Counted from the stretch's first letter, positions 8,262-60,914 are shown. The stretch is DNA of 64,000 bases from Patescibacteria group bacterium (GCA_038062955.1 JBBTWE010000001.1:253925-317924), one strand, 5' to 3'. Numbers and translations are program-made. The notes: generated by a model from the letters alone, not told the origin.

Positions 8262-8350
8262 AAATGGTAAAAACCATTTGATCCGTCTTCGCTCGTGCAT
8301 CATGAGAATAAAGATTCTCGCGATTACACTCGCTAGCCGGAATAAAAAAG
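8262..8350 (-). repeat. MITE-like repeat family D, short variant
   Basis: Reverse complement matches the ends of the 39716-39840 copy (TTTTTTATTCCGGCTAGCGAGTG ... CGAGCGAAGACGGATCAAA-GGTTT-ACC-TTTA). Terminal hairpin AAATGGT/ACCATTT. Confidence 0.6.
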
Positions 8351-8407
8351 AAGAGCCCCCGCAGAAACATTCCTGCAAGGGACTCGAACACCGAGAACGT
8401 GGCACAG

Positions 8408-8608
8408 CTACATCGGCCTCCTTCCACTCATCTCGTGTGCCCTACGACGGATGAAGGAAAGGAAGAATACTCCGGACGTGAAGGTCATGAGTGCAAACAC
8501 TAGCATCATGTCCCAACACGCAGCGAATGCGGCAACAACAAAAAACACACCGCTCATCACACTCAAGAGGCCGATCAACGCAATTGGTAGGTCTCGCACC
8601 GATATCAT
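8408..8608 (-). CDS. candidate small membrane protein (66 aa, two predicted TM helices) in a GC-rich islet
   Basis: Hydrophobic ORF MISVRDLPIALIGLLSV..VFFVVAAFAACW inside a ~50 % GC block. GGAG lies directly next to the ATG (poor spacing), so coding status is uncertain. Confidence 0.3.
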   Translation of the reverse strand: MISVRDLPIALIGLLSVMSGVFFVVAAFAACWDMMLVFALMTFTSGVFFLSFIRRRAHEMSGRRPM

Positions 8609-8675
8609 CTCCAGAAGAACTTGTCACGACCACCGTCGTAACTCGGATTCCCTACTGCATTTCAGGAACATTTTG

Positions 8676-8703
8676 AGCATAGCACAAGGCACCTTTTCTG
8701 TCA
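8676..8703 (-). promoter_or_regulatory. sigma70-like promoter (TTGACA-16-TATGCT) driving the GC-rich islet
   Basis: Read on the minus strand: ttgacagaaaaggtgccttgtgctatgct. Confidence 0.4.
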
Positions 8704-8805
8704 AGGAGATTTTGTGCTTTATTTAACCCAAATTATAGCCTTAAATAAAGCCTTATAATTGAGCGGTATTTAATTCTGATTTATTCTTAAATCTTGAATC
8801 ATAAA

Positions 8806-10086
8806 TCAGTTTATCTTGGTGGTATCTCTCGAGAAAAACAGATTGATTGTCCACTCAAAAGCTATTCGGAATCTCTTTTTCCAAGATAAAAATTTAAAAA
8901 GATAAACTGTGCGCCAAAGCCACCAGGCAAATCTTCCTTTAATTTTAAATCCAAAAATATCCCCTACCGCCTGCCACTCACCGAGCGAAATCAAACTACC
9001 CATTGATTTATACTTAAAAGATCGCAGTTGTTTTCCGCTTAAAATATTTTGTAAATTTTCTGCCACCGTCTTCGCTTGGTTTACGGCCACTTGTGCCAGC
9101 ATTGGAACCGCACCATTTTCATCACTCTTAAAATAAGCAACATCTCCTAAGACAAAAACTGAATCTTGATTAAGCGCTAAAAGATTTTGATCAACTTTTA
9201 CTCTGTTATTTTCTGTTAACTCAATATTTCCTATTATTTTAGGCAATACCGGAGAAACTCCCGCGGTCCAAAATATATTTGATGATAAAATTTTCTGTCC
9301 ACCTCCTAAACTTACGCCATTTTCGTGAATTTTCGTAACTGACGTATCTCGAAGCACAGAAATCCCCTTCTTGTTTAATATTTGAAGAGACCAATCTCGC
9401 AGTTTCTTGGGAAAGTGAGACAAAATCTCGGCTTCCCTGCTAATAAGAATGATTTTTATATCTCTTTTCTTGCAAAAAGTGTCTGCGTAATACGGATAAA
9501 GGGTGCCTACGACGAATTCAGCAATCTCCGCGACCAATTCCGCGCCAGTAGCCCCCGCTCCAACCACCACGAATGTTAAAAGTTTTGTTCTTTTTTCGCC
9601 CACAGGTTCTGAAGCGGCCTTCTCAAATGAATCGATTATTCTCGCTCGAATCGAAAGAGCGTCCCGTAGGCTTTTGAGTGGCAAGCTATTTTCTTTTGCG
9701 CCGGAAATTCCATGAAAATTTGTTTCTGCACCCGTGGCCAAAACAAGGTAATCAAATTTTATTTTTTCATTATTCGTTTCAACAATTTTTTCGTCTAAGT
9801 TAATGGCCGTAACTTCGGCCTGTCTAAATTGTACCTGACTGCCGGCAGGCAGGTGTCTTTTATTTCGGATAATTTCTCTGATTGGCTCGGTCGCGCTTAT
9901 AGGAGAAAGACCACCAGTTGCAACCTCATGCAAGAGTGGTGTGAAAAGAAAGTAATTTGTCTTGTTTATAAGAGTTACCTCAATTAAACCACTTTTAATC
10001 AGTTTTTTCAGTTTTCTTGCAACATAAATCCCCCCAAATCCCGCCCCGATTATGACTATTTTCTTTTTCTCCATAAATTTCACCAT
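8806..10086 (-). CDS. ndh: type II NADH dehydrogenase (NDH-2), FAD-dependent
   Basis: Two Rossmann motifs: KKIVIIGAGFGG and FVVVGAGATGAELVAE. Confidence 0.85.
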   Translation of the reverse strand: MVKFMEKKKIVIIGAGFGGIYVARKLKKLIKSGLIEVTLINKTNYFLFTPLLHEVATGGLSPISATEPIREIIRNKRHLPAGSQVQFRQAEVTAINLDEKIVETNNEKIKFDYLVLATGAETNFHGISGAKENSLPLKSLRDALSIRARIIDSFEKAASEPVGEKRTKLLTFVVVGAGATGAELVAEIAEFVVGTLYPYYADTFCKKRDIKIILISREAEILSHFPKKLRDWSLQILNKKGISVLRDTSVTKIHENGVSLGGGQKILSSNIFWTAGVSPVLPKIIGNIELTENNRVKVDQNLLALNQDSVFVLGDVAYFKSDENGAVPMLAQVAVNQAKTVAENLQNILSGKQLRSFKYKSMGSLISLGEWQAVGDIFGFKIKGRFAWWLWRTVYLFKFLSWKKRFRIAFEWTINLFFSRDTTKIN

Positions 10087-10226
10087 ACACTAACTTTAGC
10101 CTATAGACTAAAGTTAGTTGCGAGTAAATTTTAACTTTTACTCTTACGCTGATTTATTATGTTACAAGTATATCAAAACATCCGCTACGCAGAGCGGATG
10201 TTTTTGAATTAGAATTCTAATTATTG

Positions 10227-12049: not shown

Positions 12050-13171
12050 TTATTGTCCCAACCAAACAGCTGTAATTCCTTTTATATATGGTGGAGTGAT
12101 GGAGGTATTATCAGTATTTTCCACAGAAATATTAAATTGATTATGCCAAATACGAATAATCCTAGTGACAGAAAACGGATCAGTCCCATCAGGATTATCC
12201 TTTGTTTCAAAAAGAATATCCTCACTAAATGGATTTCCGAAGTTACCTCCTGCACCTCCGTCCCAAAACATTCTAATTCTGGTTGCCTTAGAACAAGAAT
12301 CGCAAGTATTTCCTGTCGTGCCCCAGACTGTTACCTGCCACAAACCAGGCTGGAGGAAATTAAGTGGATTAGTCTGACCTGTAACAGTAGTAGTAATTCC
12401 TAGAGGAGAACTGAAATTAACAAGTGATTTATGAAAAGTATATGAGGCTTGTTGAGTAGGAGTGTTTACCCACACCGCTTCTCCCTCATAATCGAGCGAG
12501 GATAGATAAGTATCTGGATATGGTTTACCACCCATAATTCTTATCCTACCAAGAGTATAAAGAGAAACTTCTGGTGAATTAATAGTGCCACTACCGATTC
12601 GGACAGTACTACCTGGCCCACGAGGAATATCAATGGTGTATTCGGGATTCAGTGTCCCAATACCAATTCTTGCATCCGGGGAGTCAGCAATAATCGATGT
12701 GCCTAGTCCTACTTCGGAATTCCCTGGTCCTTCTAGGCGAATAGCTGATTGTTGTGGGTTTGCCCTATCTTTAAAGATATGTAGTATGCCTGGGATGCCT
12801 GGGATGGTTGCGGGATTTTTATTTCCGATCAATAAACCTTTATATGGAATAGTTACGGCAAAAGGAGGTATGGTGTTTGGAACCGGAACAAGATCATGCG
12901 TGTCTAGGTGCAGTGGACCATTTTTTATTTGAGGAGAATCACTAACATTCAAAGGTACACCCACGTTTTTTAACAGAGGATTGGGGGGGAGAAAAGATAG
13001 AGGTGGTGGAGTCCAAGGATGTGGTGATGTAAACCATGGGTTAGAAGGTGTCAAAAGCCAAGGATACACATTCCAATGTGTTGCCAATACATCTTGAGTA
13101 GAAACAGCGATCATCAAAGAAAGAATGATGATCTTAGAGACCGAAAGAAAGTTTTGTTTTAAATTTTTCAA
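12050..13171 (-). CDS. secreted paralog 1 of MKNLKQ-family surface proteins (TTG start)
   Basis: Conserved signal peptide. Shares PEYTIDIP, LQPGxW, GTTGNTCDSCS with the next two genes. Confidence 0.6.
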   Translation of the reverse strand: MKNLKQNFLSVSKIIILSLMIAVSTQDVLATHWNVYPWLLTPSNPWFTSPHPWTPPPLSFLPPNPLLKNVGVPLNVSDSPQIKNGPLHLDTHDLVPVPNTIPPFAVTIPYKGLLIGNKNPATIPGIPGILHIFKDRANPQQSAIRLEGPGNSEVGLGTSIIADSPDARIGIGTLNPEYTIDIPRGPGSTVRIGSGTINSPEVSLYTLGRIRIMGGKPYPDTYLSSLDYEGEAVWVNTPTQQASYTFHKSLVNFSSPLGITTTVTGQTNPLNFLQPGLWQVTVWGTTGNTCDSCSKATRIRMFWDGGAGGNFGNPFSEDILFETKDNPDGTDPFSVTRIIRIWHNQFNISVENTDNTSITPPYIKGITAVWLGQ

Positions 13172-13222
13172 TTTTTTGTTTTAAATTTATTCTAAACACT
13201 ATGACTTTCTACAAAAAGTTTT

Positions 13223-14293
13223 TTAACTTCCTATCAAATACCCGCTAATACCATTTATAGTTGGCGCATTGATTCCGCCTCCTCCACCATTATCATTCAC
13301 AGAAAAATTTAAGCCAGGATTGCCAGGCAGTACTCTAACAACCAGAGAAATAGAATATGGAGCAGTGCCGTGTGTAGGGGTTTCTATTCGAAAAGATCTA
13401 CCATCTGGAGTTGGCATCTGATTGTTCGAAACTTCGATAGTTACTGTAGTGTTTGGAGAGTATGCCGCTCCGGTAGTGCCAAAAACCGTAATATACCAAT
13501 AGCCCGGCTCAAGATTGCTGGTTGAATAATTATTATTGTTAACCCCCTGTCCCCAAGATTCATCGATAGTATGAAGCGCAGAAGAAGGAATCATGTTTGG
13601 ATCTGGAATAATGCGTGGACGGCCTGTTGCTGTCCATGATCCTGTTCCGTCGGCATCCACTGATTGTAAATAAGCATCAACTAAAGGTATGGGAAAAGGA
13701 TTACCTGTATCCATAATTTGCAACGTGCCAGAAGTTTGAAGAGAAACTCCAGACGGAACAGTGCCACCGCCAATTCGCATAACAGGGTTCCCTTGCGGAA
13801 TATCGATGGTATATTCCGGATTTAAGGCTGGGTCTGTTCCAATGCCAATCATTGTCCATTGAGTTGGAGTGACCAATGCTGGACCTGCCCCTTCCACACG
13901 AATAGCAGGTCGTTGTAAATTTGCCGGATCTTTATAAATATGGAATTGAGGACGAGATGAGGTTGAAATGGTTTCAGGATCTCTATTCCCGAGCAATACG
14001 CCTCCATTATTAACACCCATCGCATTCCCATGAATAATACTGAAACCAAAAGATGATGAAACATACGGAAATTCAGTTCTGACATTGTTTGCATTTATAA
14101 GTAGTGGCCCATCTTTTATTTGCGGCGTACTTCCTGTATTTAAAGGCAATGCTATGTTCCCGCCCGGAAAAGCAACTGTTACAGGTGCCGAAGAAGTCGG
14201 CTGTGCCAAAGTATGCGCAGTAACAAAACTAATCACTAAAAAAAGAATGATTATTTTTGCAATCGACAGAATTTTTTGCTTTAAATTTTTCAA
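13223..14293 (-). CDS. secreted paralog 2 of MKNLKQ-family (TTG start)
   Basis: Signal peptide ends ..AHTLA-QP. LPLNTGSTPQIKDGPLLINANNV and NPEYTIDIPQG are shared with the other paralogs. Confidence 0.6.
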   Translation of the reverse strand: MKNLKQKILSIAKIIILFLVISFVTAHTLAQPTSSAPVTVAFPGGNIALPLNTGSTPQIKDGPLLINANNVRTEFPYVSSSFGFSIIHGNAMGVNNGGVLLGNRDPETISTSSRPQFHIYKDPANLQRPAIRVEGAGPALVTPTQWTMIGIGTDPALNPEYTIDIPQGNPVMRIGGGTVPSGVSLQTSGTLQIMDTGNPFPIPLVDAYLQSVDADGTGSWTATGRPRIIPDPNMIPSSALHTIDESWGQGVNNNNYSTSNLEPGYWYITVFGTTGAAYSPNTTVTIEVSNNQMPTPDGRSFRIETPTHGTAPYSISLVVRVLPGNPGLNFSVNDNGGGGGINAPTINGISGYLIGS

Positions 14294-14307
14294 TTTTTTG
14301 TCTTAAA

Positions 14308-15447
14308 TTAATATTGCGTCCAATATGCGCTAACTCCGTTTATAAGTGGTTCTGCCGTGCCAGAAATGTTATCCGTAACACTGACTGTTATTTTGCCGTA
14401 GTTTAAGTTGGTATTTTGGGGAACATAAACAATCCTAGTAATAGAAAACTCCGCATTTCCATCTGGATGATCTCTTATGAAAAAAGGGGTATCGACAGTT
14501 CCAAGTGAACCATTCGCGCCAAGTCTCATTGAAACAGTAACTGTGTAAGAGCAAGTATCACAGGCATTTCCAATAGTACCAAAAGCCGTCACGTGCCAAA
14601 AACCCGGTTGTAGAAAGTTAAGTGGATCGGGCGAAATAGACGCGGTGGAAGCGACTCCACTTTCCGAGAATGCTTCAGGCCAACTAACATACTGAAGCAA
14701 GGAAGGGTTGTGGTTATATAAAGATCGCCTTGCATGATACGGAACCTTCCAAAGTGTTTCTCCGGTCCCATTCAAAGTGGCCAGATAAGCGCCAGGGAAT
14801 GGACCGGCAAAATCAGTGGATGGACCATTGCCGTCATATTGATTGCCACTATCGAGAGATGGACCACCTCCCATTATTTTTACTCGACCGTTAACTTGAA
14901 GAGAGACTTCATCGTCCTGTAGACTACCATTTGGCTCATCACCACCAAGCCGAACGATCGGGATACTGATGTTGTTAGGAGTTATATTTCCCCAAGGTAT
15001 ATCAACAGTGTAATTCGGATTTAATGTTCCAATACCTATTTTTGCATCTGCAGAGTCGGTAACAAGTGCCGGACCAGACCCCTCAATACGAATAAATATC
15101 CGTCGGTAGGTATTGTGAAAAATATGCAACAATCCTTGTGGGGCAGTAACGGTATCAATCTGTGCCAAAACAGTGCTAATCAACATGCCCCAATAAGGAA
15201 TGGTTAAGCCGAAATATTGGGCAACATTGTTTGCGTTTATAAGTAGTGCCCCATCTTTTAATTGAGGAGAAGAACCGGTATTTAACGGCAGATCTATTCT
15301 TTCTACGGCTACAAATGGATCTTCTGGAGGAGGAGTTGATGTAGGTGGAACCCACTGCGCAGAAGTTTGCCCAGCAAAAATGCTAATCATAAGGGAAAGA
15401 ACGATGATTTTTGTGACCGACAGAATTTTTTGTTTTAAATTTTTCAA
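14308..15447 (-). CDS. secreted paralog 3 of MKNLKQ-family (TTG start)
   Basis: LPLNTGSSPQLKDGALLINANNV, NPNYTVDIP, LQPGFWHVTAFGTIGNACDTCS. Confidence 0.6.
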   Translation of the reverse strand: MKNLKQKILSVTKIIVLSLMISIFAGQTSAQWVPPTSTPPPEDPFVAVERIDLPLNTGSSPQLKDGALLINANNVAQYFGLTIPYWGMLISTVLAQIDTVTAPQGLLHIFHNTYRRIFIRIEGSGPALVTDSADAKIGIGTLNPNYTVDIPWGNITPNNISIPIVRLGGDEPNGSLQDDEVSLQVNGRVKIMGGGPSLDSGNQYDGNGPSTDFAGPFPGAYLATLNGTGETLWKVPYHARRSLYNHNPSLLQYVSWPEAFSESGVASTASISPDPLNFLQPGFWHVTAFGTIGNACDTCSYTVTVSMRLGANGSLGTVDTPFFIRDHPDGNAEFSITRIVYVPQNTNLNYGKITVSVTDNISGTAEPLINGVSAYWTQY

Positions 15448-16667: not shown

Positions 16668-16695
16668 GAGACTATAGAAAAAATGTAATTTAAAA

Positions 16696-16730
16696 AAACC
16701 CGCCATTTCGGCGGGTTTTTTAAATTATAT
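16696..16730. terminator. bidirectional rho-independent terminator
   Basis: aaaaaaacccgccatttcggcgggtttttt lies between two convergent genes. Confidence 0.8.
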
Positions 16731-16733
16731 TTT

Positions 16734-17024
16734 TTAGTATTCTTTTCGGAAACTAGAACTTCCTCCACGTGGTCGTTCTTCTTTTGCGCGAGCTTCGTCA
16801 ACGGTGATTTTTCTTCCTTCCATTTCTTTGCCGTTAAACATTTGAATCGCTGTCTTAGCTTCTTCATCGGATGCCATTTCAACGAAACCAAACCCTTTTG
16901 AACGACCTGACATTTTGTCAGAAATGATTGTTGCGGAAGCAACTTTTCCAGCTTTTGAAAAAAAAGCGGATAAATCGTTTTCAGTGGTGCTGTATGGCAG
17001 ACCACCTACATATAACTTTTTCAT
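16734..17024 (-). CDS. RRM-type RNA-binding protein
   Basis: RNP-2 motif LYVGGL and RNP-1 motif KGFGFVEM, plus an RGG-like tail. Start set at MKKLYVGG. Confidence 0.8.
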   Translation of the reverse strand: MKKLYVGGLPYSTTENDLSAFFSKAGKVASATIISDKMSGRSKGFGFVEMASDEEAKTAIQMFNGKEMEGRKITVDEARAKEERPRGGSSSFRKEY

Positions 17025-19436: not shown

Positions 19437-19513
19437 GATCCAATATAACACGGATTTATAAAATTTAAAAGGTAAAAAGAAAGAGCGGCCATCACTGGTC
19501 GCCCCCAAACACC

Positions 19514-19618
19514 TCAAGCAACCCCTTCAGAATCTTTGTCATCATCATAAATCACCCAAAAGAAAGCCCCGAAGAAGACAGCGAGAGCTCCGATCAAAAG
19601 CCACCACACCATGTCCAT
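19514..19618 (-). CDS. candidate 34-aa hydrophobic peptide (MDMVWWLLIGALAVFFGAFFWVIYDDDKDSEGVA)
   Basis: GC-rich islet with promoter TTGACC-17-TATGTT and GGAG 3 nt before the ATG. Too short to appear in the ORF track. Confidence 0.3.
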   Translation of the reverse strand: MDMVWWLLIGALAVFFGAFFWVIYDDDKDSEGVA

Positions 19619-19661
19619 TACTCCAGTAGGCAGAAGTAGAATGTGAGGAACAACCACCTAA

Positions 19662-19690
19662 AACATACTACTTCAGAATATATGGGTCAA
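19662..19690 (-). promoter_or_regulatory. sigma70-like promoter TTGACC-17-TATGTT
   Basis: Reverse complement reads ttgacccatatattctgaagtagtatgtt. Confidence 0.4.
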
Positions 19691-21957: not shown

Positions 21958-22179
21958 ATATAGTTACGACTCAAATTGCATTTAAGCTAGAGTCTCATAA
22001 CCGCCCAATCTTTATAATAAACAACGTGACTGGCTTATCTCGAGAGTTTAAGCCGTCTAATTAGAGCCTATACCTTCCAAATTTGCTTCAGGAAGGAAAA
22101 CTTAAGAGATATTAGTTATAGGTCTATAGTATATTAAAAACAAATTATTGTCAATGCTTTTAGAAAAAACAAACCCCGA

Positions 22180-22515
22180 TCAGCTTTTCTGAACGGGGTC
22201 ATCAGGTGTTGGCAAAAGCTTGGGTCTCCGTGAGGCAATACCCGTACCAACCATTGGGAGAAACACCGCGAGTGGGGCAATGAATGTGACCCATGATACT
22301 TCGCTAAATATCATGAGAACTACATCGTAAACACAAATACTGACGGCGAGAATAAAAGCTAGTTTGGCTGTCCTCGAGCTTTCCTTGTTTAGTACGAGGC
22401 CTTTTGACGTGAGACACCACAGTCGTCCGCTCAAGGCCCGCATATGAAGCGTCCAGCACAGTAAGAGGTAGACAACGCTCATACAGAGGATGATGATTAG
22501 ATGAATGGACAACAT
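22180..22515 (-). CDS. GC-rich membrane protein, unknown function
   Basis: 111 aa and hydrophobic, with AAGGAG before the ATG and a hairpin terminator at 22164-22200. Confidence 0.45.
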   Translation of the reverse strand: MLSIHLIIILCMSVVYLLLCWTLHMRALSGRLWCLTSKGLVLNKESSRTAKLAFILAVSICVYDVVLMIFSEVSWVTFIAPLAVFLPMVGTGIASRRPKLLPTPDDPVQKS

Positions 22516-22632
22516 ATCTTCTCCTTGGTTTTTGTGATGTGAAAGAACTTCTTAAAATAAGTTACTACAATGAATTGTTCCCGTCAATTCTAATAAAAAA
22601 AGACCCGTGCACTAGGCAACGGGTCTATGGGT

Positions 22633-23328
22633 CTAGTCCGGCAAAATCTTGGAAGCTTCTGCGGGTGCTTCCTGGGGAACAGGCGCAACTTCTGCACCAA
22701 TTCCTGCTTCTGCGGGAGGATCGCGAGAATCATCGGCGAGAAGAGTGTCCTCATCACCATTCGCGATTTGCTCTTTAGCTTTGTCGAAGTAGCTGTCCCA
22801 CTTCTCCTCTGCGAGACCAAAGAGAAGCATCACTTTGTGGGCTTCCTTGAACTCAAGACGAGACTTTTCAGTGAGAGAATCTCCGAGGCCATGCTGGGCT
22901 TCACAGAGAAAATGCGACACAGCAAATGATACCAGAACCCTCTCTGCCATCTTTGAGAGTGCTTCGTCGTTGAGCACTCCAGCACAGCTACTGTACTCTT
23001 TGAGTTTGTAGCAATCCCTCAAGAATCTCCGATCTGCTAGTCGGTGAGTGAATAGGTATGCGTACCCAGAGGAGAGAAAAAACGTACAACCCACACTCGC
23101 TACAAGAAAGAGCAACAGACCAAACGCCGTACTATTTTGACCCCACAGATGCTCGCCACCCAAAATAAGGAGGGTTGTGGTCACAACAAGCAACAAAAAA
23201 CCGTACTCACATTCCCTCCTGCTCTTTACGGCTTCAAAAGGTGATGAGGTGCAACCAACTCTTTCCCACCTATCAACCAGAGTGACTGATGCCACTCTCT
23301 CAAAGAACGCGTCGAGAAGATGTCCCAT
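22633..23328 (-). CDS. GC-rich membrane protein with acidic C-terminal tail, unknown function
   Basis: 231 aa with two TM helices and a GGAG RBS. Terminator GACCCGTgcactaggcaACGGGTC plus T-run at 22594-22627. Confidence 0.45.
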   Translation of the reverse strand: MGHLLDAFFERVASVTLVDRWERVGCTSSPFEAVKSRRECEYGFLLLVVTTTLLILGGEHLWGQNSTAFGLLLFLVASVGCTFFLSSGYAYLFTHRLADRRFLRDCYKLKEYSSCAGVLNDEALSKMAERVLVSFAVSHFLCEAQHGLGDSLTEKSRLEFKEAHKVMLLFGLAEEKWDSYFDKAKEQIANGDEDTLLADDSRDPPAEAGIGAEVAPVPQEAPAEASKILPD

Positions 23329-23501
23329 AACAAACTCCTTTTAACCTGATTTGACTAAAATGGGAGCTTCAGGGCTCCATTCGAAACTGACTTCAGGCCA
23401 GTCTCGAATACTTCATTTTAGAGAAAGCTTCAGGCCAGCTTTTCCGTTTATTATCTAAACATAGTTGATATTTTTTGTCAAAAAAATTTGAGATTTAAGA
23501 T

Positions 23502-28647: not shown

Positions 28648-28676
28648 TTGACAGATATGTAGTAATCTGCTATACT
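28648..28676 (+). promoter_or_regulatory. consensus sigma70 promoter TTGACA-17-TATACT
   Basis: tttgacagatatgtagtaatctgctatactag, followed by AGGAGG 6 nt before the ATG at 28721. Confidence 0.55.
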
Positions 28677-28720
28677 AGATATAGATATATTGTTCTTCCC
28701 AAAACCACAAGGAGGTCGTC

Positions 28721-29092
28721 ATGACCACGCAAGCGATCCGTGACTTTTTCTGGGTTCTGCAGGCTTTTATTCGAGGCAAGGTGTTTCACCAGACAGATTA
28801 CGTGCCTGGACCGAACGCTAAAGCTTTCATAATGAGTTTAGTGAGGCCGAGCTGGAGAATCAGAGGGAGCTTCAGTGTTGGGCGTATTGCAACCCTGATG
28901 AGATGGTGGGGTCCGCAGATGATGACAAAGCGCCAGATACACGACCTGGAAAGTCTGGCGGCTTACGAACACGAAGCGTTCAAAAAAGTTCCGTTTTTGT
29001 TCTGGTATGAAAACGAAACGAGGCTTTTTTGTGGAGTTGCAGATCCAGGCTGGATCGAGCTAAGGGAAATGGAGGTTGAGGCCAATTCTTGA
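28721..29092 (+). CDS. GC-rich hypothetical protein (123 aa), foreign-looking cassette
   Basis: ~50 % GC with strong SD and promoter. Terminator GGGCGACtagaaataGTTGCCC plus T-run at 29120-29150. Confidence 0.5.
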   Translation: MTTQAIRDFFWVLQAFIRGKVFHQTDYVPGPNAKAFIMSLVRPSWRIRGSFSVGRIATLMRWWGPQMMTKRQIHDLESLAAYEHEAFKKVPFLFWYENETRLFCGVADPGWIELREMEVEANS

Positions 29093-29265
29093 TTTGTGCA
29101 GGACGAGTCAAGAACACATGGGCGACTAGAAATAGTTGCCCTTTAATTTTGCCCAAATTTCCATCTATTTTTTACTTTTGAATTTTAATTTTGATTTTTG
29201 CCTTTTGAGATTTGAATTGGGTAAAATAAAAATCTAAATTATCACTGATCACGTAGATATCATTC

Positions 29266-31659: not shown

Positions 31660-31660
31660 A

Positions 31661-31817: not shown

Positions 31818-31848
31818 TAAAAAAAGCGCACCTCTTTCGAAGTGCGCA
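31818..31848 (-). terminator. rho-independent terminator of a GC-rich cassette
   Basis: On the minus strand: GCGCACttcgaaagagGTGCGC followed by T7. Confidence 0.65.
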
Positions 31849-31866
31849 CGATGACCTTCATTCAAC

Positions 31867-32412
31867 TCATCTACTCGGGTGAGTGGACTCTAGCCATTTC
31901 CAAGCTTTCCTCATTGCGATGAGGTGATGTGGACGGAACTTCATCTGTCCATCTTGTACCCCGTTCTTGTCTCCATCCGTTGATTCTACAGCCTCCTCGA
32001 TTTGACTCTTCGTCCGAAGCTTGAAGGTGCCAGAAACTTCCCCGCGAATCTCCTTGAGGATCGTGGATGGAACTGAAGCAACAAACACAACGTGCCGATC
32101 TCCGTCCTGGTCGATCTCATCGTAAATAGAGAACGGACCTCCGGATTTCTCCAGAATCTGAAGGAGAATATCTGCGGCTTCGTGATCCAATTCCTCATTG
32201 GCTCCACGACTCAGAGTAGAGGAAAGGGATCCCTCATCATTCGCCTCCATTTTCTCATTGAACATGGGAGAGAAAACGCCGGCAAATGACTGTTTCTTAT
32301 AGCCAGTCGGACTTTCAGCATTGAACTCATTCCTCTGTTGACAGATAGTTACCCATCCGCCAAGTTCTGGAATGTGAGTAAAAGCAACACACGCCACATG
32401 GGTTGTTGGCAC
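31867..32412 (-). CDS. GC-rich hypothetical protein (181 aa)
   Basis: ~50 % GC ORF with its own terminator. No recognised motif. Confidence 0.45.
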   Translation of the reverse strand: MPTTHVACVAFTHIPELGGWVTICQQRNEFNAESPTGYKKQSFAGVFSPMFNEKMEANDEGSLSSTLSRGANEELDHEAADILLQILEKSGGPFSIYDEIDQDGDRHVVFVASVPSTILKEIRGEVSGTFKLRTKSQIEEAVESTDGDKNGVQDGQMKFRPHHLIAMRKAWKWLESTHPSR

Positions 32413-32590
32413 GGTTCGATCCTTTGTTTGATTTTTGTGATTTCAGAAGAACAACCTATTTCTTAGACTATATAACTTCTTCCAACAAGTCAATCTTAGT
32501 GAAAACGACCAGCATATAGTTGGTGGTTTTCACTATCAAAAAAATGAGAAAGAAGTTTGTAAGTATTACTAAATATATTTTTCTATTCCT

Positions 32591-48723: not shown

Positions 48724-48732
48724 GTGGAAGTT

Positions 48733-49767: not shown

Positions 49768-49834
49768 AAAGTTCTAATAATTATAATCGAAAGAGATTCA
49801 TAAGTCGAAATTTTAAAAAATTGGTTATAAAAAA

Positions 49835-50300
49835 AGAACAGGGGCCGATCCGAAGATCTTCCCCTGTCGTTGCGCATTTTTCGGACCCAGATAGAGGGGG
49901 TCCACCTCTTAGCCTTTTGAGTGGCTAAACACTCTTGCGTGTCGTTATCCAGCCCTTCCACGTTCACGATTTATGGTCGTGTCCGCTTATGGGTTCCAGT
50001 GACTCTACTCCTTTTCGAGGTTGTGGGTTGACGGTCGTCTCATTTTTTTGGATCGCCTTTTTGAGTGGCGAACTCTTACGTCTGGATTCCAGCCCTTCCC
50101 TTTTTGTGATCTCTCACAATCAGGTCGGGGTCCCCAGTTTTCTCCTCCACTAGGCCTTGTTTTACCACCTGCCAGTTGGGTGGGAAAGAACACTTTGAGT
50201 TAGCCAAAAAAAGCACAAAGGGGCAACCGACACACCACTTGGGTGCCGGTTTAGCCTCCTCCTGCCTTGACTAATCTGCTAAGAGCCTAGCATACTAACA
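49835..50300 (-). ncRNA. candidate structured non-coding RNA of unknown class, upstream of dnaX
   Basis: ~460-nt GC-rich block with no convincing ORF. Internal duplicated ~50-nt modules (GGAAGGGCTGGA..AAGAGT..CCACTCAAAAGGC). Ends in a GC hairpin plus T7. Confidence 0.3.
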
Positions 50301-50359
50301 AAATAATGTCAAGCGAAAATTAGACATTTCGTATCAGATGGCTTGAAATATAGGTTTTT

Positions 50360-51360: not shown

Positions 51361-52206
51361 CTATCTTACCTTATAGAAGATTTTATTACCAAACTGAAGA
51401 TTAATTTGTTCAAGAGACCCTAAGGAATCAATTTCTTTTTGAAACTCGAGTTCGTCTATAAGCGCAGTGAGATTCTCAAATGTTTTTTCAAAATCATTTT
51501 CTGGATTTAAAATTAATTTAATATCCCCGCTTAAGCGTATTTCAAGATTCTCTCGATTATTGATGACCTTAATAATTTCTACATTAAAAGTCTTCGAAAC
51601 ATTATTTAAAAAACTATTTAAATCTTCGAAATTTTTTGTTTCTAGAAAATAATCGTTCATGGATTCGGTAGATGTGGCAGTATAATATTTTACAAAAGAG
51701 TTTCCACTAAAGTTAGGGGCGTCATCAAATAAAAAGCCTGTTTTATCCAAATACGAACATTTTTCATTTGAAATTTGATCGGACGATGATTCGCACCAAA
51801 GACCAAAGGGCTGTCTTTCTAGAATTTTAATGTTCAGAATTGAAAATTTTTCAATTGAAACCGTAACATCTGAAATTCTTTTAAATTGACTCAAAATATC
51901 ACTTTCAATTTCATATCTTGGATAAAGAAGAATATTTGATTTTGAAAATAGGCCGAGCATGGCGCCGTCTATTTTATTTTCAGCAATTTGAATTATTTCT
52001 TTCGTGTTTACAACCTCTTCTCCTGTTGTTTTTATTTCTTTAATGCCAAGAAATTTAGCATGGGAAAGCAAAGACAGTGTGCCGACAAACACAACTACTA
52101 ACAAAAAATATAAAACTATTCTGATAATAATTTTTTTTCTTCTCTTTTTAACTATATTGGAAGTTTTGAATTTTAACTTTGTACGAAACATATTAAATAG
52201 ATTCAT
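51361..52206 (-). CDS. FtsQ/DivIB-like cell-division protein (basic N-terminus, TM, POTRA-like region)
   Basis: KKRRKKIIIRIVLYFLLVVVF anchor followed by FLGIKEIKTTGEEVVNTKEI. The murF-PBP genes are nearby. Confidence 0.4.
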   Translation of the reverse strand: MNLFNMFRTKLKFKTSNIVKKRRKKIIIRIVLYFLLVVVFVGTLSLLSHAKFLGIKEIKTTGEEVVNTKEIIQIAENKIDGAMLGLFSKSNILLYPRYEIESDILSQFKRISDVTVSIEKFSILNIKILERQPFGLWCESSSDQISNEKCSYLDKTGFLFDDAPNFSGNSFVKYYTATSTESMNDYFLETKNFEDLNSFLNNVSKTFNVEIIKVINNRENLEIRLSGDIKLILNPENDFEKTFENLTALIDELEFQKEIDSLGSLEQINLQFGNKIFYKVR

Positions 52207-52235
52207 GATTCAAGATTCATGACTTTAAAATCTTA

Positions 52236-52255
52236 CCTGCCTGCCGGCAGGCAGG
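52236..52255. repeat. 20-bp palindrome CCTGCCTGCCGGCAGGCAGG
   Basis: Exact copy, embedded inside an AGATTCATGA-type inverted A/T repeat. Confidence 0.8.
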
Positions 52256-53633: not shown

Positions 53634-54485
53634 ATGGACAGTATTAAAGTCTTAAATAAAAAAGATTGGCCGAAACTTCTCCTTGAAATAAACGATCCGC
53701 CAAAAAAACTTTACATAAGAGGTGTCTTCCCGGGAGAAGATTTCCTATTTTTAAGCGTAGTTGGTTCCCGAAAATACACAAATTACGGAAAGTCGGCTTG
53801 CGAAGCCCTTATTGAGAGCTTACGAGGACAGCCGGTTGTGATAGTTTCTGGGCTAGCTTTAGGAATTGATTCGATCGCTCACAAAAAAGCTCTGGAAATT
53901 GGACTTACAACTCTCGCAATTCCAGGCTCTGGATTAGATGAAAAAGTGCTTTATCCTAGCACCCACAAAAACCTGGCGAGACAGATTGTCGAGAAGGGCG
54001 GATGTTTAATTTCAGAATTTGAACCGGATTTTAAAGCCACTGCATATTCTTTCCCCCAGAGAAACAGAATCATGGCCGGGTTATCTTCGGCTGTTTTAGT
54101 AATTGAAGCTGAGAAAAAATCAGGCACGCTCATCACCGCAAGACTTGCACTCGATTATAACCGTGATGTTTTTGCAGTGCCCGGACCAATTTTTAGTTCA
54201 AGCTCTGAAGGCACAAATATGCTCATCAAAAATGGCGCCTGCACAATCACGAGTCCTTCTGATCTTTTGGACGTATTAGGATTAAAAGAGCCTACTCCGG
54301 AAGATAAATTCGCCGACTGTTCCGAAGATGAAAAGAAAATCATCGAACTTTTGAAAAACCCAATGACTCGCGACGAGCTTATACGAGAAAGCGGTTTCTC
54401 CTCCCAAGACGCTCAAGTGCTTCTTTCGGTTATGGAGATCAAGGGAATTATCGGAGAGAGTATGGGAGAGATAAGAATTAAGTAG
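53634..54485 (+). CDS. dprA: DNA-processing protein DprA/Smf
   Basis: VVGSRKYTNYG ... VIVSGLALGIDSIAH ... C-terminal winged-helix domain. Confidence 0.85.
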   Translation: MDSIKVLNKKDWPKLLLEINDPPKKLYIRGVFPGEDFLFLSVVGSRKYTNYGKSACEALIESLRGQPVVIVSGLALGIDSIAHKKALEIGLTTLAIPGSGLDEKVLYPSTHKNLARQIVEKGGCLISEFEPDFKATAYSFPQRNRIMAGLSSAVLVIEAEKKSGTLITARLALDYNRDVFAVPGPIFSSSSEGTNMLIKNGACTITSPSDLLDVLGLKEPTPEDKFADCSEDEKKIIELLKNPMTRDELIRESGFSSQDAQVLLSVMEIKGIIGESMGEIRIK

Positions 54486-54515
54486 ATTTATGATCTACGA
54501 TTTAAGATATAAGAT

Positions 54516-54553
54516 TTAAAAAAATTCTTACGAAGAATCGTAAGAATTTTTTT
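54516..54553. terminator. bidirectional rho-independent terminator
   Basis: A6-AATTCTTACGaagaatCGTAAGAATT-T7. Confidence 0.75.
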
Positions 54554-55145: not shown

Positions 55146-55177
55146 AAAAAAAGACCCTGCACTTCACGTGTAGGGTC
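55146..55177 (-). terminator. rho-independent terminator of a GC-rich cassette
   Basis: GACCCTacacgtgaagtgcAGGGTC plus T7 on the minus strand. Confidence 0.65.
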
Positions 55178-55215
55178 CGAGTCAACGCTATTCTAGGGAG
55201 CTTTTTACAGTTCGG

Positions 55216-55737
55216 CTAGGCTACCTGAGCAGGAGTAGAAGTGGATGAGACAGCAAAGGCAACTCCACCATCTTGATCCCACACATCAGTAGGTTTGACG
55301 CAGTATGCCACCAACCATGGCTGGGTAGAATGCCATCTTGCAACAAGAAAAAAAGGTTCATTGCCACAATGAAGTGGATTATGTAGAGCAACAATCCAAT
55401 ACAGACCCATTTCCCGGATCTGATCGTTTGTGAACATTCTGCGTATCAGACAGACAACTTCAGCATTTGGCACCCTGAGATCTCGTTGACTGGCCCTAAT
55501 ACGTATAGCTAACGTAGTACGCTCAACAACAGGAATAAATCCCACCTTAAGAACCGCTATCTCAGTGGTAACACCAGAGGTCGCCACGAAAAAAGGAGAA
55601 CGCAAGAGAGTTCTTGCTTCGTCAGAAAGTGGGTAAAAATTCTCGTCGAACCATTTCATCCACCCTTCGCCTGTCGTGCCGTCGCTCGTGACAGAGAAGT
55701 AGATGACCCCATTCTCTTCGCGCCAATCGTGTGACAT
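55216..55737 (-). CDS. GC-rich hypothetical protein (173 aa)
   Basis: ~52 % GC, with GGAG 8 nt before the ATG, its own promoter and its own terminator. Confidence 0.45.
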   Translation of the reverse strand: MSHDWREENGVIYFSVTSDGTTGEGWMKWFDENFYPLSDEARTLLRSPFFVATSGVTTEIAVLKVGFIPVVERTTLAIRIRASQRDLRVPNAEVVCLIRRMFTNDQIREMGLYWIVALHNPLHCGNEPFFLVARWHSTQPWLVAYCVKPTDVWDQDGGVAFAVSSTSTPAQVA

Positions 55738-55899
55738 GGTCTATTTCTCCATTTAAGAAGCTTGCTAGAAATCCACCGAAGTTGGTGGTCATAGCCAAGA
55801 ATCCTCATGTTCCATAAGAACTTTTGGCTACGACCACACTACTTACATCCCGCTTCCGCCCCAACTACAGCGTGGCAAAGTCAAAGAACAACTCGAAAA

Positions 55900-55928
55900 A
55901 ACATACTCTTTGTGAAGCATTTTGTCAA
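55900..55928 (-). promoter_or_regulatory. sigma70 promoter TTGACA-17-TATGTT
   Basis: Reverse complement reads ttgacaaaatgcttcacaaagagtatgtt. Confidence 0.45.
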
Positions 55929-56005
55929 CATCAAAACGCAGATTCAAGATTTATGATTCACGATTCATGAATTTAAAATCTTAAATCGTATATCATAAAT
56001 CTTCC

Positions 56006-57073: not shown

Positions 57074-57118
57074 TGATACAATTATATCAAATACATTAAA
57101 TAAGGCATAAAAAAATTT

Positions 57119-57568: not shown

Positions 57569-57731
57569 GATTTATGATTTAAGATATGAGATTTCAGATT
57601 TAAGAAAAATATCTATAATTATTGATTCCTGAATTTATTTGTATCATTCGTAATTGGTGTCGTGTGTATAAAAAAACCGCGCAAACCCTGCACTTGCAGT
57701 GTCTACGCGGTCGATGTTGCGCTACCCAATC

Positions 57732-58256
57732 TCACATCGGATAAGCTCGAGCGAAACGAGTTGCGTGTTCCCTGTCCCCGGCTCCCAACAAAGTCCAGAG
57801 GAGTCGAAAATGGGTACCATTGTCCATCCGAGGCATGTACAGAATGAACCGCTCGGGACCTTTCACGATGTGTAGCCTCGGGTTGCGAAGTTTCCTTCCT
57901 CCCTTGCAGAAAACCCTTGTTCCGGGAAATTCCAGAGAATTACCCGCTTCAAGAAGCTGTAGGAGAGCTGGCGGCTTGTGCTCAAAGAGCCACAGTGCCT
58001 GCTGACATCCAGCCACCCCCAGATCGACAAGGTTCCGATCATAACGTTCGCTGTCCACCTCGGGAAGAGGAGAAGTTGCGAGACGTTCCGCTTCCACCCT
58101 ACAGAGACCATCGATTGATCTCTCTTCCATTTCAGAAATCTGCATCTCCGGAAATCTGGCGCAAAGCTCTCTTCGTGTTGGCTTGCGGAGCTTCGGAACC
58201 AAGATGTTCATCATCGCAACACTGTGACTTCTGACTGCTTCTCGACGCATTTGCAT
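57732..58256 (-). CDS. GC-rich hypothetical protein, paralog A of a tandem pair
   Basis: Shares GVAG.Q.A.WL ... ALL.LL ... LEFPGT ... MPR ... LGAGD with 58558-59094. AGGAAA RBS. Confidence 0.5.
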   Translation of the reverse strand: MQMRREAVRSHSVAMMNILVPKLRKPTRRELCARFPEMQISEMEERSIDGLCRVEAERLATSPLPEVDSERYDRNLVDLGVAGCQQALWLFEHKPPALLQLLEAGNSLEFPGTRVFCKGGRKLRNPRLHIVKGPERFILYMPRMDNGTHFRLLWTLLGAGDREHATRFARAYPM

Positions 58257-58346
58257 GATTGACCGTTTCCTAAAAAGAAGTTTCGAATAGCGCTTCCAAA
58301 GAACTATTCCTCTTGCAAGATAGCATTTTTAGTGCTGTTGTGTCAA

Positions 58347-58432
58347 CCCCGTAGTACCTGCCTACCGGCAAGGCAGGGATTTTGGCATAGCAACTTTGTT
58401 GCAAAGCAACGATGCCAAAATTCACTACGGGG
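58347..58432. repeat. palindromic element family B, copy A (immediately upstream of the -35 of paralog A)
   Basis: CCCGTAGT...ACTACGGG outer stem. CCTGCCTACCGGCAAGGCAGG and TTTTGGCAT..ATGCCAAAA internal hairpins. Inverted twin at 59276-59361. Confidence 0.75.
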
Positions 58433-58557
58433 TCGAATTAATTAGATAAATATAAAAAAGACCCCGGAGACACTGCTAAACAGCATCTCCGGGGTCCGAA
58501 TGTTCGCTTCGATTCCAGGATAAACCTAGAACGAAGTTGTGAGGTGTTCGATCCGTC

Positions 58558-59094
58558 TCACACTGGCGGAACAGCGAAAGCAACCCGAGTCCTGGGATCC
58601 AAGTCCCCTGCACCCAGAGAACCCCATGTCATTTGAAGACCCGAACCTCCATGGATCCTCGGCATGAGCGGAATGAGCCTCTGTTGCCCAATCACTTTCC
58701 CTCTTGCCACCTTTGGCACAGTGATGACCGTGCCGGGGAACTCGAGACAGAACCCATCTCGCAGAAGTTCCAGAAGTGCTTGAGGGCGACTCTGGAGAAG
58801 CCATCTGGCGTGCTGGTAACCAGCCACTCCCGCCATCCTTCCGCACCTCTTCATCTCCAACTCGAGCTTCGTACCGTACCTCTCTCCATCGACTGACCCG
58901 ACGGAGCATGTGGACAGGCCTTTCGGCACTATCTTCACAGGACACAGGACCGAACTGTCCTGTGTCTCGAGAATCCCCATCTTGGGAAACTTGCCGCGGA
59001 GCATCCTGATACTCGTCGCGCCAACTCCCGGAATCACGATCTCCTCCCACGGGGAAGAAACCATCTTCGACTCCACGAACGTATCTACTTGCAT
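58558..59094 (-). CDS. GC-rich hypothetical protein, paralog B
   Basis: Paralog of 57732-58256. Promoter TTGACA-15-TATAAT at 59249-59275. Terminator GACCCCGGAGAtgctgtttagcagtgTCTCCGGGGTC plus T6. Confidence 0.5.
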   Translation of the reverse strand: MQVDTFVESKMVSSPWEEIVIPGVGATSIRMLRGKFPKMGILETQDSSVLCPVKIVPKGLSTCSVGSVDGERYGTKLELEMKRCGRMAGVAGYQHARWLLQSRPQALLELLRDGFCLEFPGTVITVPKVARGKVIGQQRLIPLMPRIHGGSGLQMTWGSLGAGDLDPRTRVAFAVPPV

Positions 59095-59275
59095 GACCGT
59101 TTCCTTCTATCGAGTGACCGAAAGCACCCAAGAAACTTGGATGCTTTTCACCTCTTTTCAACATCCAAAGAACCCATTGGGACGAGTGCCTCAAACCTTG
59201 AAAAGAAGTATGCGAGCAGGTTCCTCCAAAGAACTACTCCTCAAATAAATTATACCTTTAATGACCGCGTGTCAA

Positions 59276-59361
59276 TCCCGTAGTGAATTTTGGCATCGTT
59301 GCTTTGCAACAAAGTTGCTATGCCAAAATCCCTGCCTTGCCGGTAGGCAGGTACTACGGGA
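59276..59361. repeat. palindromic element family B, copy B
   Basis: Reverse complement of 58347-58432. Preceded by the same GTGTCAA (-35) junction. Confidence 0.75.
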
Positions 59362-59452
59362 TCAAATAAAAAAACAGCCCACCTAGACCGAAGTCTAGGT
59401 GGGCTGTCGAAGAGAGTTGAACTCCCTGTTTGTGGGTCGGGCGAAGCCGAAC

Positions 59453-60100
59453 CTACGTGACGGCGAGCGTTTGGATGAGCTTGTTCATCACAGTCTTCTT
59501 GAAACAGATGGGCCATTCCTGACCACCAAGAGCTTCCGCGACCTTTCTCACGGAAGTAATTCGTGCACGCTCTTCACTGAGTTCATCACGCAATCGAAAA
59601 CATTCATTACGCTCACGCTCGAGATCTCGACGACTCGCGACCAACTCTGCTTCGAGCTCATCGACGGGTCGGCTCTGCTGAGGTTGCTCCCAGCTTTCCG
59701 CCGGACGTACGGTGCCCGCACGAATTGCGTCGTGGAGTTTCCTCACTTCCCCGAGCTTCGTTCCCGTAGCCCTCAAGAAGTAATTCGAGGAGTTCACCTC
59801 CAGTCTGACAACAGCGTCTCCGAATTGCTCTTCATCACGATAGATCCCCGTCTCCCGCCGCGGCTGCAAAGGAAAGCAACCATGGAAAGATACGTCGGTC
59901 ACAAAGGGCAGGAGCGCTTCTGGGATCATGTCGTCCAGATAGCCCAGACAAAGATGGAGGCGTCCCTCTGTTCCCGAGAGGCCAGTACCTTTGAAGGTGG
60001 TCTGCTCCCAGTTCCGCACCGGCTTACCACCGGTCTTCTGTTCCACCTCGAATCCTTCCTCCTGCCGAATGGCTTCCTTCAGATACACGTTCACAGACAT
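59453..60100 (-). CDS. GC-rich hypothetical protein (215 aa, C-terminal coiled coil)
   Basis: Real-looking composition. The opposite-strand ORF 59399-60199 is R/L/S-rich antisense noise. Own terminator at 59371-59412. Confidence 0.45.
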   Translation of the reverse strand: MSVNVYLKEAIRQEEGFEVEQKTGGKPVRNWEQTTFKGTGLSGTEGRLHLCLGYLDDMIPEALLPFVTDVSFHGCFPLQPRRETGIYRDEEQFGDAVVRLEVNSSNYFLRATGTKLGEVRKLHDAIRAGTVRPAESWEQPQQSRPVDELEAELVASRRDLERERNECFRLRDELSEERARITSVRKVAEALGGQEWPICFKKTVMNKLIQTLAVT

Positions 60101-60345
60101 CGCAGACTCCTTGTTTTAGCTGCCAGGTTTACCGTAGGGTTGCTCACCCAGTCGGGCCTCGATCAGCGAACTGTTTTATCATCAGAGATGTTCCGATGAC
60201 TCTGTTACTATTGTATCATATGCCACGCAAAAGTCAAGGGCGATCCACAGGACTCTCCACATATTCCAAAATATCTATATTTCTAGGCGTTTAATAAAAT
60301 AAAAAAACCGGCGGCCGATCTGAATCAGCTGCCAGTTTTGACCCC

Positions 60346-60831
60346 CTACTTCACATCCTTGAGAAGCGACATCCCGTGATACCAATGGCGTCCAAAGAAT
60401 CTTGTGGGACCACTGATCCATTCTTCTCCACTAAAATCATCGAAACCACTTGATCGAGGTTGATTTTGATAAAACAGACCTCTACCTCGTGCAAGCATTG
60501 GACCACGGCCACCCAAAAACTGACGCTTCTTGTAGGCCTTTTGAAGGCATGTCTTGAGAAACGGGATCGCCTTCTCATCATACCAACCACCGTAGTGCAT
60601 CATCCAGACTGGTTGGTCTCGGTAGAAGATTATGGTCATCCCAGAACTCTTGTTGGAGTGCGAGTTCACCATAAAACAATCCACCATCTGGAATTCGCCA
60701 GAAATGAAAGTAAACTTTCTGGAACCAGGAAGCTCCGCTATGTCACCCTTTGGGCTTCCTGTGCCACACCAGCCCGCCAACATCCCATCGAAGAAGAATT
60801 CCTGAACTGACTCTAATGTAGATTGCTGCAT
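60346..60831 (-). CDS. GC-rich hypothetical protein (161 aa)
   Basis: Last gene of the island before tRNA-Glu. No recognised motif. Confidence 0.45.
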   Translation of the reverse strand: MQQSTLESVQEFFFDGMLAGWCGTGSPKGDIAELPGSRKFTFISGEFQMVDCFMVNSHSNKSSGMTIIFYRDQPVWMMHYGGWYDEKAIPFLKTCLQKAYKKRQFLGGRGPMLARGRGLFYQNQPRSSGFDDFSGEEWISGPTRFFGRHWYHGMSLLKDVK

Positions 60832-60914
60832 CTTTGCTTACCTCGTTGATTGGTTAGAGAACAAAGTTTTTCTAGAGTGAAGATAATATTAAATGGAGTT
60901 TGTGTCAACTTTGA

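Follow-up and report, generated by a model that had tools for sequence, protein, structure and literature searches.

We analysed a 64,000-nucleotide stretch from a Patescibacteria group bacterium (GCA_038062955.1; hereafter the window, with positions counted from its first letter) and found that its eight GC-rich islets are probably 12 autonomous, moron-like accessory units of a single gene each, which form a distinct, maintained expression class and not freshly acquired foreign DNA. The host is an ultra-small, AT-rich groundwater member of the Paceibacteria (Patescibacteria, or candidate phyla radiation, CPR) from Hainich well H43 (0.1 µm filter; ENA contig Hain_H43_01um_R2_8). An earlier note on this DNA had placed eight islets between positions 8345 and 60840; all eight exist, and reading by eye, with the signals located by program, resolved them into 12 monocistronic units (c1, c2, c3b, c3a, c4, c5, unit 6, c7, c8a, c8b, c8c and c8d), all on the minus strand but c4. 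Each unit comprises a near-consensus, sigma-70-type TTGACN promoter, a leader of 37-156 nt and a terminator, plus a Shine-Dalgarno (SD) sequence and an open reading frame (ORF) in all but the apparently non-coding unit 6. The one or two ORFs expected per islet were found elsewhere, but islet 8 consists of four units and islet 6 holds no credible ORF. The islets are flanked by core cellular genes, namely relA/spoT, ndh, typA, a DEAD helicase gene, rmuC, rplU, serS and tRNA-Glu, among which typA, ndh and the DEAD-box helicase had already been identified correctly.

Expression signals set the units apart from native genes

Cassette promoters combine TTGACN with TAnnnT across a spacer of 16-18 nt (17 nt in 10 of 12), c3b carrying TTAGAT at the -10 position. 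Matches to TTGAC-N17-19-TANNNT number 19 in the window, whereas shuffled sequences gave 8.9 +/- 3.0 and none of 100 shuffles reached 19; of the matches in the window, 11 are correctly oriented cassette promoters (binomial P = 4e-6). An SD of the GGAG/AGGA type, 5-11 nt 5′ of the start codon, precedes 10 of the 11 cassette ORFs compared with 4 of 61 native ORFs (Fisher P = 2e-8), which bears out the AGGAG-type ribosome-binding sites reported before; the native rate of 7% is close to background (9% in an internal-ATG control), so the description of native genes as SD-less also holds. Moreover, the islets, at 12.7% of the sequence, contain 12 of the window's 24 strong hairpin terminators with a T6 run (P = 1e-5), in agreement with the stem and T-run terminators described previously.

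The layout of native genes is different. In 12 of 14 native genes with a recognisable -10 box, the box sits 6-21 nt from the start codon, which suggests that the default mRNAs of this genome are leaderless or have very short leaders. The core genes around the islets, like those of the whole clade, lack SD sequences and have short or absent leaders, and in about 70 Paceibacteria relatives SD-like motifs occurred in core genes at background frequency whatever the genome GC. The claim of a different expression regime thus stands as a contrast in layout that extends across the clade, but not as recent acquisition from another regime.

The GC content of the window is 39.0%, with a mean of 0.489 in the islets (0.43-0.51 each) and 0.377 outside them; the 50-55% previously given for the islets is too high, and only individual cassette ORFs range from 0.47 to 0.57. 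Third-position GC (GC3) is 0.53 in cassettes versus 0.32 in native genes. Because conserved native genes also reach a local GC of 0.47-0.52, an islet cannot be recognised by its GC alone. The non-coding leaders are not especially GC-rich. The best matches of the window's RmuC, at 60-70% identity, were in Adlerbacteria, Kaiserbacteria, Lloydbacteria and other Paceibacteria metagenome-assembled genomes, whose loci are mostly ~50% GC (range 37-63%); with its 39% GC, the host thus stands on the AT-rich side of a clade of intermediate GC.

The units are as follows; box denotes the promoter-proximal motif described in the next section, and TM a transmembrane segment.

8344..8704, minus strand: unit c1; promoter 8704-8676 (TTGACA-17-TATGCT), GTTCCT box at 8669, ORF 8408-8608 (66-aa two-TM peptide), terminator ending at 8344
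19474..19690, minus strand: unit c2; promoter 19690-19662 (TTGACC-17-TATGTT), GTTCCT box at 19651, GGAG, ORF 19517-19612 (31-aa one-TM peptide), GC hairpin with an interrupted T-run
22595..23481, minus strand: unit c3b; promoter 23481-23453 (TTGACA-17-TTAGAT), no box, 118-nt structured leader, AGGAG, ORF 22633-23328 (231 aa; two TM segments and an acidic tail), terminator
22164..22587, minus strand: unit c3a; promoter 22587-22559, GTTCTT box at 22548, AGGAG, ORF 22180-22515 (111-aa membrane protein), terminator
28648..29173, plus strand: unit c4, the sole plus-strand unit; promoter 28648-28676 (TTGACA-17-TATACT), GTTCTT box at 28692, AAGGAGG, ORF 28721-29092 (123 aa), weaker terminator
31819..32493, minus strand: unit c5; promoter 32493-32465, GTTCTT box at 32452, AAAGGA, ORF 31867-32412 (181 aa; GTG start), terminator
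49829..50312, minus strand: unit 6; promoter 50312-50284 (TTGACA-17-TAGGCT), early hairpin with T7 (T-run 50212-50206; attenuator- or small-RNA-like), two internal repeats of ~45-55 nt (GGAAGGGCTGGA...GCCACTCAAAAGGC), final terminator at 49835
55146..55928, minus strand: unit c7; promoter 55928-55900, GTTCTT box at 55889, 156-nt leader with a hairpin at 55785-55838, GGAG, ORF 55216-55737 (173 aa; candidate C-type-lectin-like fold), terminator
57670..58346, minus strand: unit c8a; promoter 58346-58317, GTTCTT box at 58304, ORF 57732-58256 (174 aa; syntenic in relatives L091-L093), terminator
58454..59275, minus strand: unit c8b; promoter 59275-59247, GTTCTT box at 59234, 146-nt leader, ORF 58558-59094 (178 aa; c8a paralogue), terminator
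59368..60237, minus strand: unit c8c; promoter 60237-60210 (TTGACT-16-TACAAT), no box, AGGAG, ORF 59453-60100 (215 aa; not in relative L091), terminator
60301..60908, minus strand: unit c8d; promoter 60908-60880, 4 nt from the tRNA-Glu 3′ end, GTTCTC box at 60862, ORF 60346-60831 (161-aa DUF5680 protein; not in relative L091), terminator

The predicted products include ORFans and small membrane peptides as well as a DUF5680 protein and a putative C-type-lectin-like protein, with named homologues in CPR only. The c1 and c2 peptides are small and hydrophobic; in c1, GGAG directly abuts the ATG, and translation more probably starts at a GTG 9 nt further downstream. Unit 6, which is without an SD-led ORF and has a fold z-score of -3.3, had no homologues among the relatives' and metagenomic loci compared and is a candidate novel non-coding RNA.

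A box near the transcription start accompanies the promoters

Nine of the 12 units (binomial P ~4e-15 for a motif picked post hoc) have a GTTC[TC][TC] box 6-17 nt 3′ of the -10 element, which places it among the first ~15 bases of the transcript; its wider consensus reads (A/T)TAGTTCTTTGA. The composite of promoter and box occurs 10 times in the 64-kb window compared with ~2.2 times per 1.35 Mb of shuffled sequence. Furthermore, the box follows the promoters of unrelated cassettes in other genomes, including an exonuclease-like gene (L039), a GGDEF gene (L031), a c5 homologue (L298) and the c7 family. A scan of IMG/VR with the promoter and box pattern returned at least about the number of matches estimated for chance. 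The box may be regulatory, acting either as an operator or as an element at the mRNA 5′ end.

The first two of these genes occupy the gap between yqeY and rmuC in two relatives (L039:3478-4200 and L031:6250-7100), where the cassettes carry the same promoter, a TAGTTCTT box, an SD and a terminator; sequence motifs judged by eye point to a DEDD-exonuclease-like product and a GGDEF protein, respectively.

Islet 8 units are gained and lost as wholes, and c8a shows no amelioration

Islet 8 abuts a tRNA gene and contains two copies of a short repeat element.

60913..60987, minus strand: tRNA-Glu(CUC), the conserved left anchor of islet 8
58348..58431, no strand assigned: 84-bp palindromic element, copy 1, 100% identical to copy 2 in inverted orientation; not in relatives L091-L093
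59277..59360, no strand assigned: 84-bp palindromic element, copy 2, inverted relative to copy 1

In an all-against-all BLASTP comparison, c8a and c8b were identified as paralogues (35% identity, E = 1.6e-27). Comparison of both with their syntenic orthologues gave dS values of 0.75-1.1 and dN/dS values of 0.17-0.38; c8a and c8b are protein-coding genes under purifying selection. Nucleotide conservation was highest outside the coding sequence (CDS), with identities of 89-91% in the promoter and 5′ untranslated region and 92-98% in the terminator versus 67-73% in the CDS. A structure prediction for c8a, made from a four-sequence alignment, reached a pLDDT of 41 and was unusable.

In the window lineage, third-position changes from GC to AT and from AT to GC were balanced at 8:8; three lineages together gave 30:38, and the L091 lineage had 3 GC-to-AT versus 19 AT-to-GC changes. 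If the genes were decaying towards the host GC3 of 0.32, ~70% of changes would be expected to run from GC to AT, from which the observed 30:38 departs (P = 2e-6). Thus, c8a shows no amelioration.

The relative L091 (~75-82% nucleotide identity) has the order murC-like / tRNA-Glu / c8b / c8a / yqeY and lacks c8d, c8c and both 84-bp elements, the breakpoint falling exactly between the tRNA 3′ end and the c8b -35 box. The absence of c8c and c8d therefore indicates that whole units were gained or lost. The 84-bp elements bracket c8b and contain terminal inverted repeats (CCCGTAGT...ACTACGGG) and two internal palindromes; the pair may be an insertion resembling a miniature inverted-repeat transposable element (MITE) or an invertible segment. 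Beyond the islet, the order yqeY-rmuC-rplU is conserved across ~70 relatives, with two spacers varying from 0 to 3.7 kb that are insertion hot spots. ORFs within these variable gaps carried an SD in 43% of cases versus 12.5% of other ORFs in the same relatives (P = 2e-7), and no cassette homologues were found in the rmuC neighbourhoods of 80 relatives.

The c7 and c5 families retain the layout in other genomes

The c7 family comprises 1,194 cluster representatives at E <= 1e-3, its named members being Patescibacteria. The neighbour proteins in 80 metagenomic c7 loci fell into 64 clusters, and the genomic contexts are therefore diverse. Nevertheless, in all 62 loci whose flanks were usable, c7 exceeded its surroundings in GC (mean +0.148, minimum +0.07), with a GC3 of 0.74 versus 0.43; the excess is at synonymous sites, amounting to +0.31 at third codon positions versus +0.07 at first and +0.08 at second positions. 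Regression of gene GC on flank GC gave a slope of 0.61 and an intercept of +0.31, and the GC offset over the flanks is persistent. The GC excess looks maintained, and not like a fading donor signature, because c7 is GC-richer in every one of these loci and c8a and c8b are without a GC-to-AT excess; what holds GC3 high would be either selection or biased gene conversion.

The expression signals were likewise retained: an SD was found at 71 of 80 c7 loci, a TTGACA-17-TAnnnT promoter at 53 of 72 and the box at no fewer than 33. Only 10% of the ORFs flanking c7 had an SD, and the c7 homologues differ from these flanks (P = 1e-12). The leader hairpin of c7 (55785-55838 in the window, minus strand) was present in ~66 of the 80 loci (L216-L295), with compensatory changes in 15 of 24 pairs. 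Rfam covariance models matched neither unit 6 nor the c7-family leaders, and the c7 hairpin is a candidate cis-regulatory RNA motif absent from Rfam. It is not common to the other cassettes, a covariance model of it (R1) having matched c7 alone in the window and none of 74 other loci. On its 3′ side lie a CCUCCUC/GAGGAA hairpin and then a small hairpin abutting the SD. Homologues of c5 in other genomes show the same unit layout in two other contexts.

Weighing the explanations

If the islets are accessory units of this kind, they would be gained, lost and relocated as promoter-to-terminator wholes, presumably by recombination in naturally DNA-importing organisms. They occupy intergenic hot spots between core genes and would constitute a second expression class, with transcription governed via the shared start-site box and translation initiated through the SD, so that accessory genes could be controlled apart from the leaderless, SD-less core. 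Several points weigh against this account. The survey covers 64 kb of one genome, and the homologue evidence leaves out c1, c2, c3a, c3b, c4 and c8c. The amelioration test concerns a single gene and presupposes the same AT bias in the relatives as in the host, and the partial tracking of flank GC by c7 (slope 0.61) also fits slow amelioration. The box motif alone is not enriched across the window, its position being what matters, and it is not palindromic; a role for the box as a cis anti-SD pairing with the SD was rejected because duplex energies were no better than those of shuffled 5′ ends (mean z -0.12; 2 of 45 at P < 0.05), and minimum-free-energy folds did not show box-SD pairing consistently. 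The function of promoter, SD and terminator in the host is deduced from sequence, conservation and purifying selection. Finally, the CCUCCU anti-SD motif has been reported as lacking in about half of Parcubacteria (PMC9297842). If the host ribosome is also without it, SD-led initiation cannot be the mechanism and the conserved SD-like sites require another explanation: they would act via an unknown factor, or the cassettes would be meant for another translation apparatus, such as that of the cell to which the symbiont attaches.

Recent horizontal acquisition from GC-richer, SD-using donors, with donor signals and codon usage decaying towards host composition, appears rather unlikely to us. It would account for the contrast in GC, GC3 and SD with native genes, the presence and absence of c8c and c8d beside a tRNA, the many contexts of the c7 and c5 families and the lower-GC c7 copies in the most AT-rich hosts (again the slope of 0.61), and horizontal gene transfer (HGT) among Patescibacteria has been reported as common (PMC12455944). 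However, every named homologue of the cassettes belongs to the Patescibacteria, and sister lineages are implausible as SD-using donors because the related clade is itself SD-poor. None of the 62 c7 loci had flanks as GC-rich as the gene, c8a and c8b have stayed at one site over a dS of ~1 (0.75-1.1) without an excess of GC-to-AT changes, and regulatory regions are more constrained than the CDS; the earlier suggestion of recent foreign origin is not upheld by these results. GC-biased gene conversion is less probable again as the whole explanation. It holds that cassettes recombine often, through transformation and allele swapping via conserved flanks, that biased repair lifts synonymous GC, and that the expression signals are no more than the requirements of a gene standing by itself. 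The concentration of the GC excess at third positions, the persistence of the offset across hosts, the 19:3 ratio in the L091 lineage, the conservation of promoter and terminator flanks round a diverged CDS and a DprA encoded within the window all agree with it, but it leaves the GTTCTT box and the accessory-specific SD unexplained, and the ordinary GC of the non-coding leaders speaks against it.

Whether the islets are remnants of a defined mobile system, such as prophage morons, integron cassettes or a promoter family borne on MITEs or insertion sequences (IS), can be judged from the searches for relatedness and mobility. The moron-like layout, the tRNA next to islet 8, the 84-bp inverted repeats around c8b and other short dispersed repeats near some islets are in its favour. 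Nevertheless, c8a and c8b were the sole match among all cassette proteins in the BLASTP comparison, and self-BLASTN of the window showed that the units share short functional motifs only and no cassette DNA; promoter regions have in common just the -35 and -10 hexamers and the box, with no homologous sequence, and the 3′ ends are ordinary hairpin and T-run terminators unrelated in sequence. Pfam assigned DUF5680 to c8d and no other domain to the cassette proteins, and PHROGs, PADLOC and NCBIfam gave nothing meaningful for them. No relatives were found in IMG/VR with the c7 family, c8c, c8d, c5 or c3b, nor by tblastn of c7 against INPHARED phages and PLSDB plasmids, and all homologues with source names were Patescibacteria. 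An integrase domain was absent from the Pfam-annotated genes of ~22.6-35 kb and 48.7-62 kb (the remaining ORFs were not all scanned) and from the four ORFs of islet 8; no transposase, attC sites or cassette-bounding repeats were seen, and the tRNA 3′ end had no direct repeat when the window was compared with itself. Core cellular genes flank the islets, and relatives with the same cassettes lack the 84-bp repeats. From these unrelated proteins, unshared DNA and missing library matches and mobility genes, it follows that the cassettes are neither a homologous family nor an autonomous element, contrary to the single family of selfish or mobile modules that had been envisaged, and we regard a mobile-system origin as very improbable. 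An artefact, whether chimeric assembly, a contaminating GC-rich genome or structural RNA genes producing the GC peaks, has next to no credibility here, even though the source is a metagenome and GC-rich islets in AT-rich genomes are classically genes for rRNA, tRNA or other non-coding RNA. Six or more other samples or assemblers yielded independently assembled contigs that are colinear with the window, with identities of 99.94-100%. Assembly continuity, which the earlier note had proposed to check, is thereby confirmed and a chimera excluded at the junctions covered, those of islets 4, 6, 7 and 8 and one side of islet 3 (islets 1, 2 and 5 were left out), and a diverged relative carries a syntenic copy. 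Rfam 15 (gathering threshold) and ARAGORN identified two tRNAs only across the window, tRNA-Gln and tRNA-Glu, both outside the islets, so that the GC peaks cannot be put down to rRNA or another structural RNA; the units are filled by long ORFs evolving under purifying selection, and unit 6 alone looks non-coding.

The reading of the islets as a maintained accessory expression class could extend to the Paceibacteria, perhaps to the wider CPR, as two expression systems within one small genome, a leaderless, SD-less core and an exchangeable accessory regulon marked by a consensus promoter, the GTTCTTTGA box, an SD leader, GC-rich codons held by selection and a strong terminator; we put forward this generalisation tentatively and would sooner bet against it. 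CPR bacteria represent a large share of bacterial diversity, are not yet routinely cultured, and almost nothing is known of their gene regulation. A signature that tells accessory from core genes by sequence would be a practical finder of CPR accessory genes, some of which may mediate host interaction, and with it come ready-made CPR-compatible expression parts, a candidate cis-regulatory box and a new structured leader RNA. The units also provide test cases for what keeps GC high against mutational bias, be it selection or biased gene conversion, and for translation start in lineages that largely abandoned or lost the SD/anti-SD interaction.

Repeats and other native features of the window

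A perfect 20-bp palindrome, CCTGCCTGCCGGCAGGCAGG, occurs at 45761-45780, 52236-52255 and 61034-61053 in native intergenic positions and resembles a REP-like host repeat. A variant of it lies inside the 84-bp element, and host-type palindromes are present both inside and outside islet 8. A 120-bp dispersed repeat at 19270-19389 and 48613-48732 (97.5% identical, inverted) has one copy between typA and islet 2 and the other downstream of ruvB. Three copies of a ~165-bp repeat (74-83% identity) were found at 24628-24789, 30461-30621 and 34390-34550; the latter two stand just upstream of genes starting at 30465 (cupredoxin-like) and 34395, and the first spans the 5′ end and upstream region of a cupredoxin-like gene at 24244-24681. 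This repeat may be a shared regulatory or 5′ coding region. Another short dispersed repeat, at 8260-8349, 31660-31689 and 39718-39840, lies just beyond the c1 and c5 terminators and at one native intergenic site, and AT-rich intergenic repeats of the 'AAGATTTAAGATTT' type, often at cassette edges, are located at 8184-8233, 52199-52235, 54473-54516 and 55932-56003.

Three tandem paralogous genes on the minus strand at 12050-15447 encode predicted products of 373, 356 and 379 aa, one of which was tested in Pfam without a match; their longest ORFs have putative starts at TTG after (T)TTAA[A/G]ACAAAAAA. A perfect GC-rich palindrome at 16678-16735, located between convergent native genes and bordered by A- and T-runs on either strand, resembles a bidirectional terminator.

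Comparison with known systems

A literature search returned no description of this cassette layout, and the units share separate aspects with several known systems. Phage 'morons', described by Hendrix and colleagues, are reportedly single genes with their own sigma-70-type promoter and factor-independent terminator and of deviant composition. The cassettes resemble them in having one gene with its own promoter and intrinsic terminator, a composition unlike that of the neighbours, gain and loss as a unit, and a position between resident genes, as morons are inserted between unrelated resident genes. Unlike morons, the cassettes stand between housekeeping genes (relA, ndh, typA, rmuC, rplU and tRNA-Glu) of a cellular chromosome, have no phage homology, conserve their deviant composition over many hosts and carry a specific box after the promoter.

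Odd GC and codon usage, ORFans, variable presence and, in islet 8 only, tRNA adjacency are shared with genomic islets and with the atypical, horizontally acquired genes modelled by gene finders such as GeneMarkS-2 (PMC6028130) and also reported from Patescibacteria (PMC12455944), whereas the cassettes are not ameliorating in composition, are always GC-richer and possess a uniform set of promoter, box, SD and terminator. The tRNA-adjacent atypical composition of a classical genomic island was seen only in islet 8, 4 nt from tRNA-Glu and with the L091 indel, and the integrase and tRNA-derived direct repeats of such islands were absent. The units are similar to integron cassettes in being small, mostly single-ORF, unrelated in function, arranged in series (islet 8) and variable in content; integron cassettes, however, have no promoter of their own, terminate in attC and rely on IntI and a shared Pc promoter, whereas those described here have their own promoter and terminator, and GTTCTT misfits the integron core site GTTRRRY. 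Nor do the units share an element with terminal inverted repeats, as a mobile promoter borne on a MITE or IS would, and the 84-bp element is separate from the cassettes.

SD-poor Bacteroidota have rare SD-led genes such as rpsU. In gene expression, the units resemble these as well as the leadered and leaderless gene classes of Mycobacteria (PMC4633059, PMC3898074), in that two initiation layouts coexist in one genome and may allow differential control. Unlike in the Mycobacteria and Bacteroidota cases, the anti-SD motif may be missing from this clade (PMC9297842), and the two layouts divide along the line between core and accessory genes, which also differ widely in GC3.

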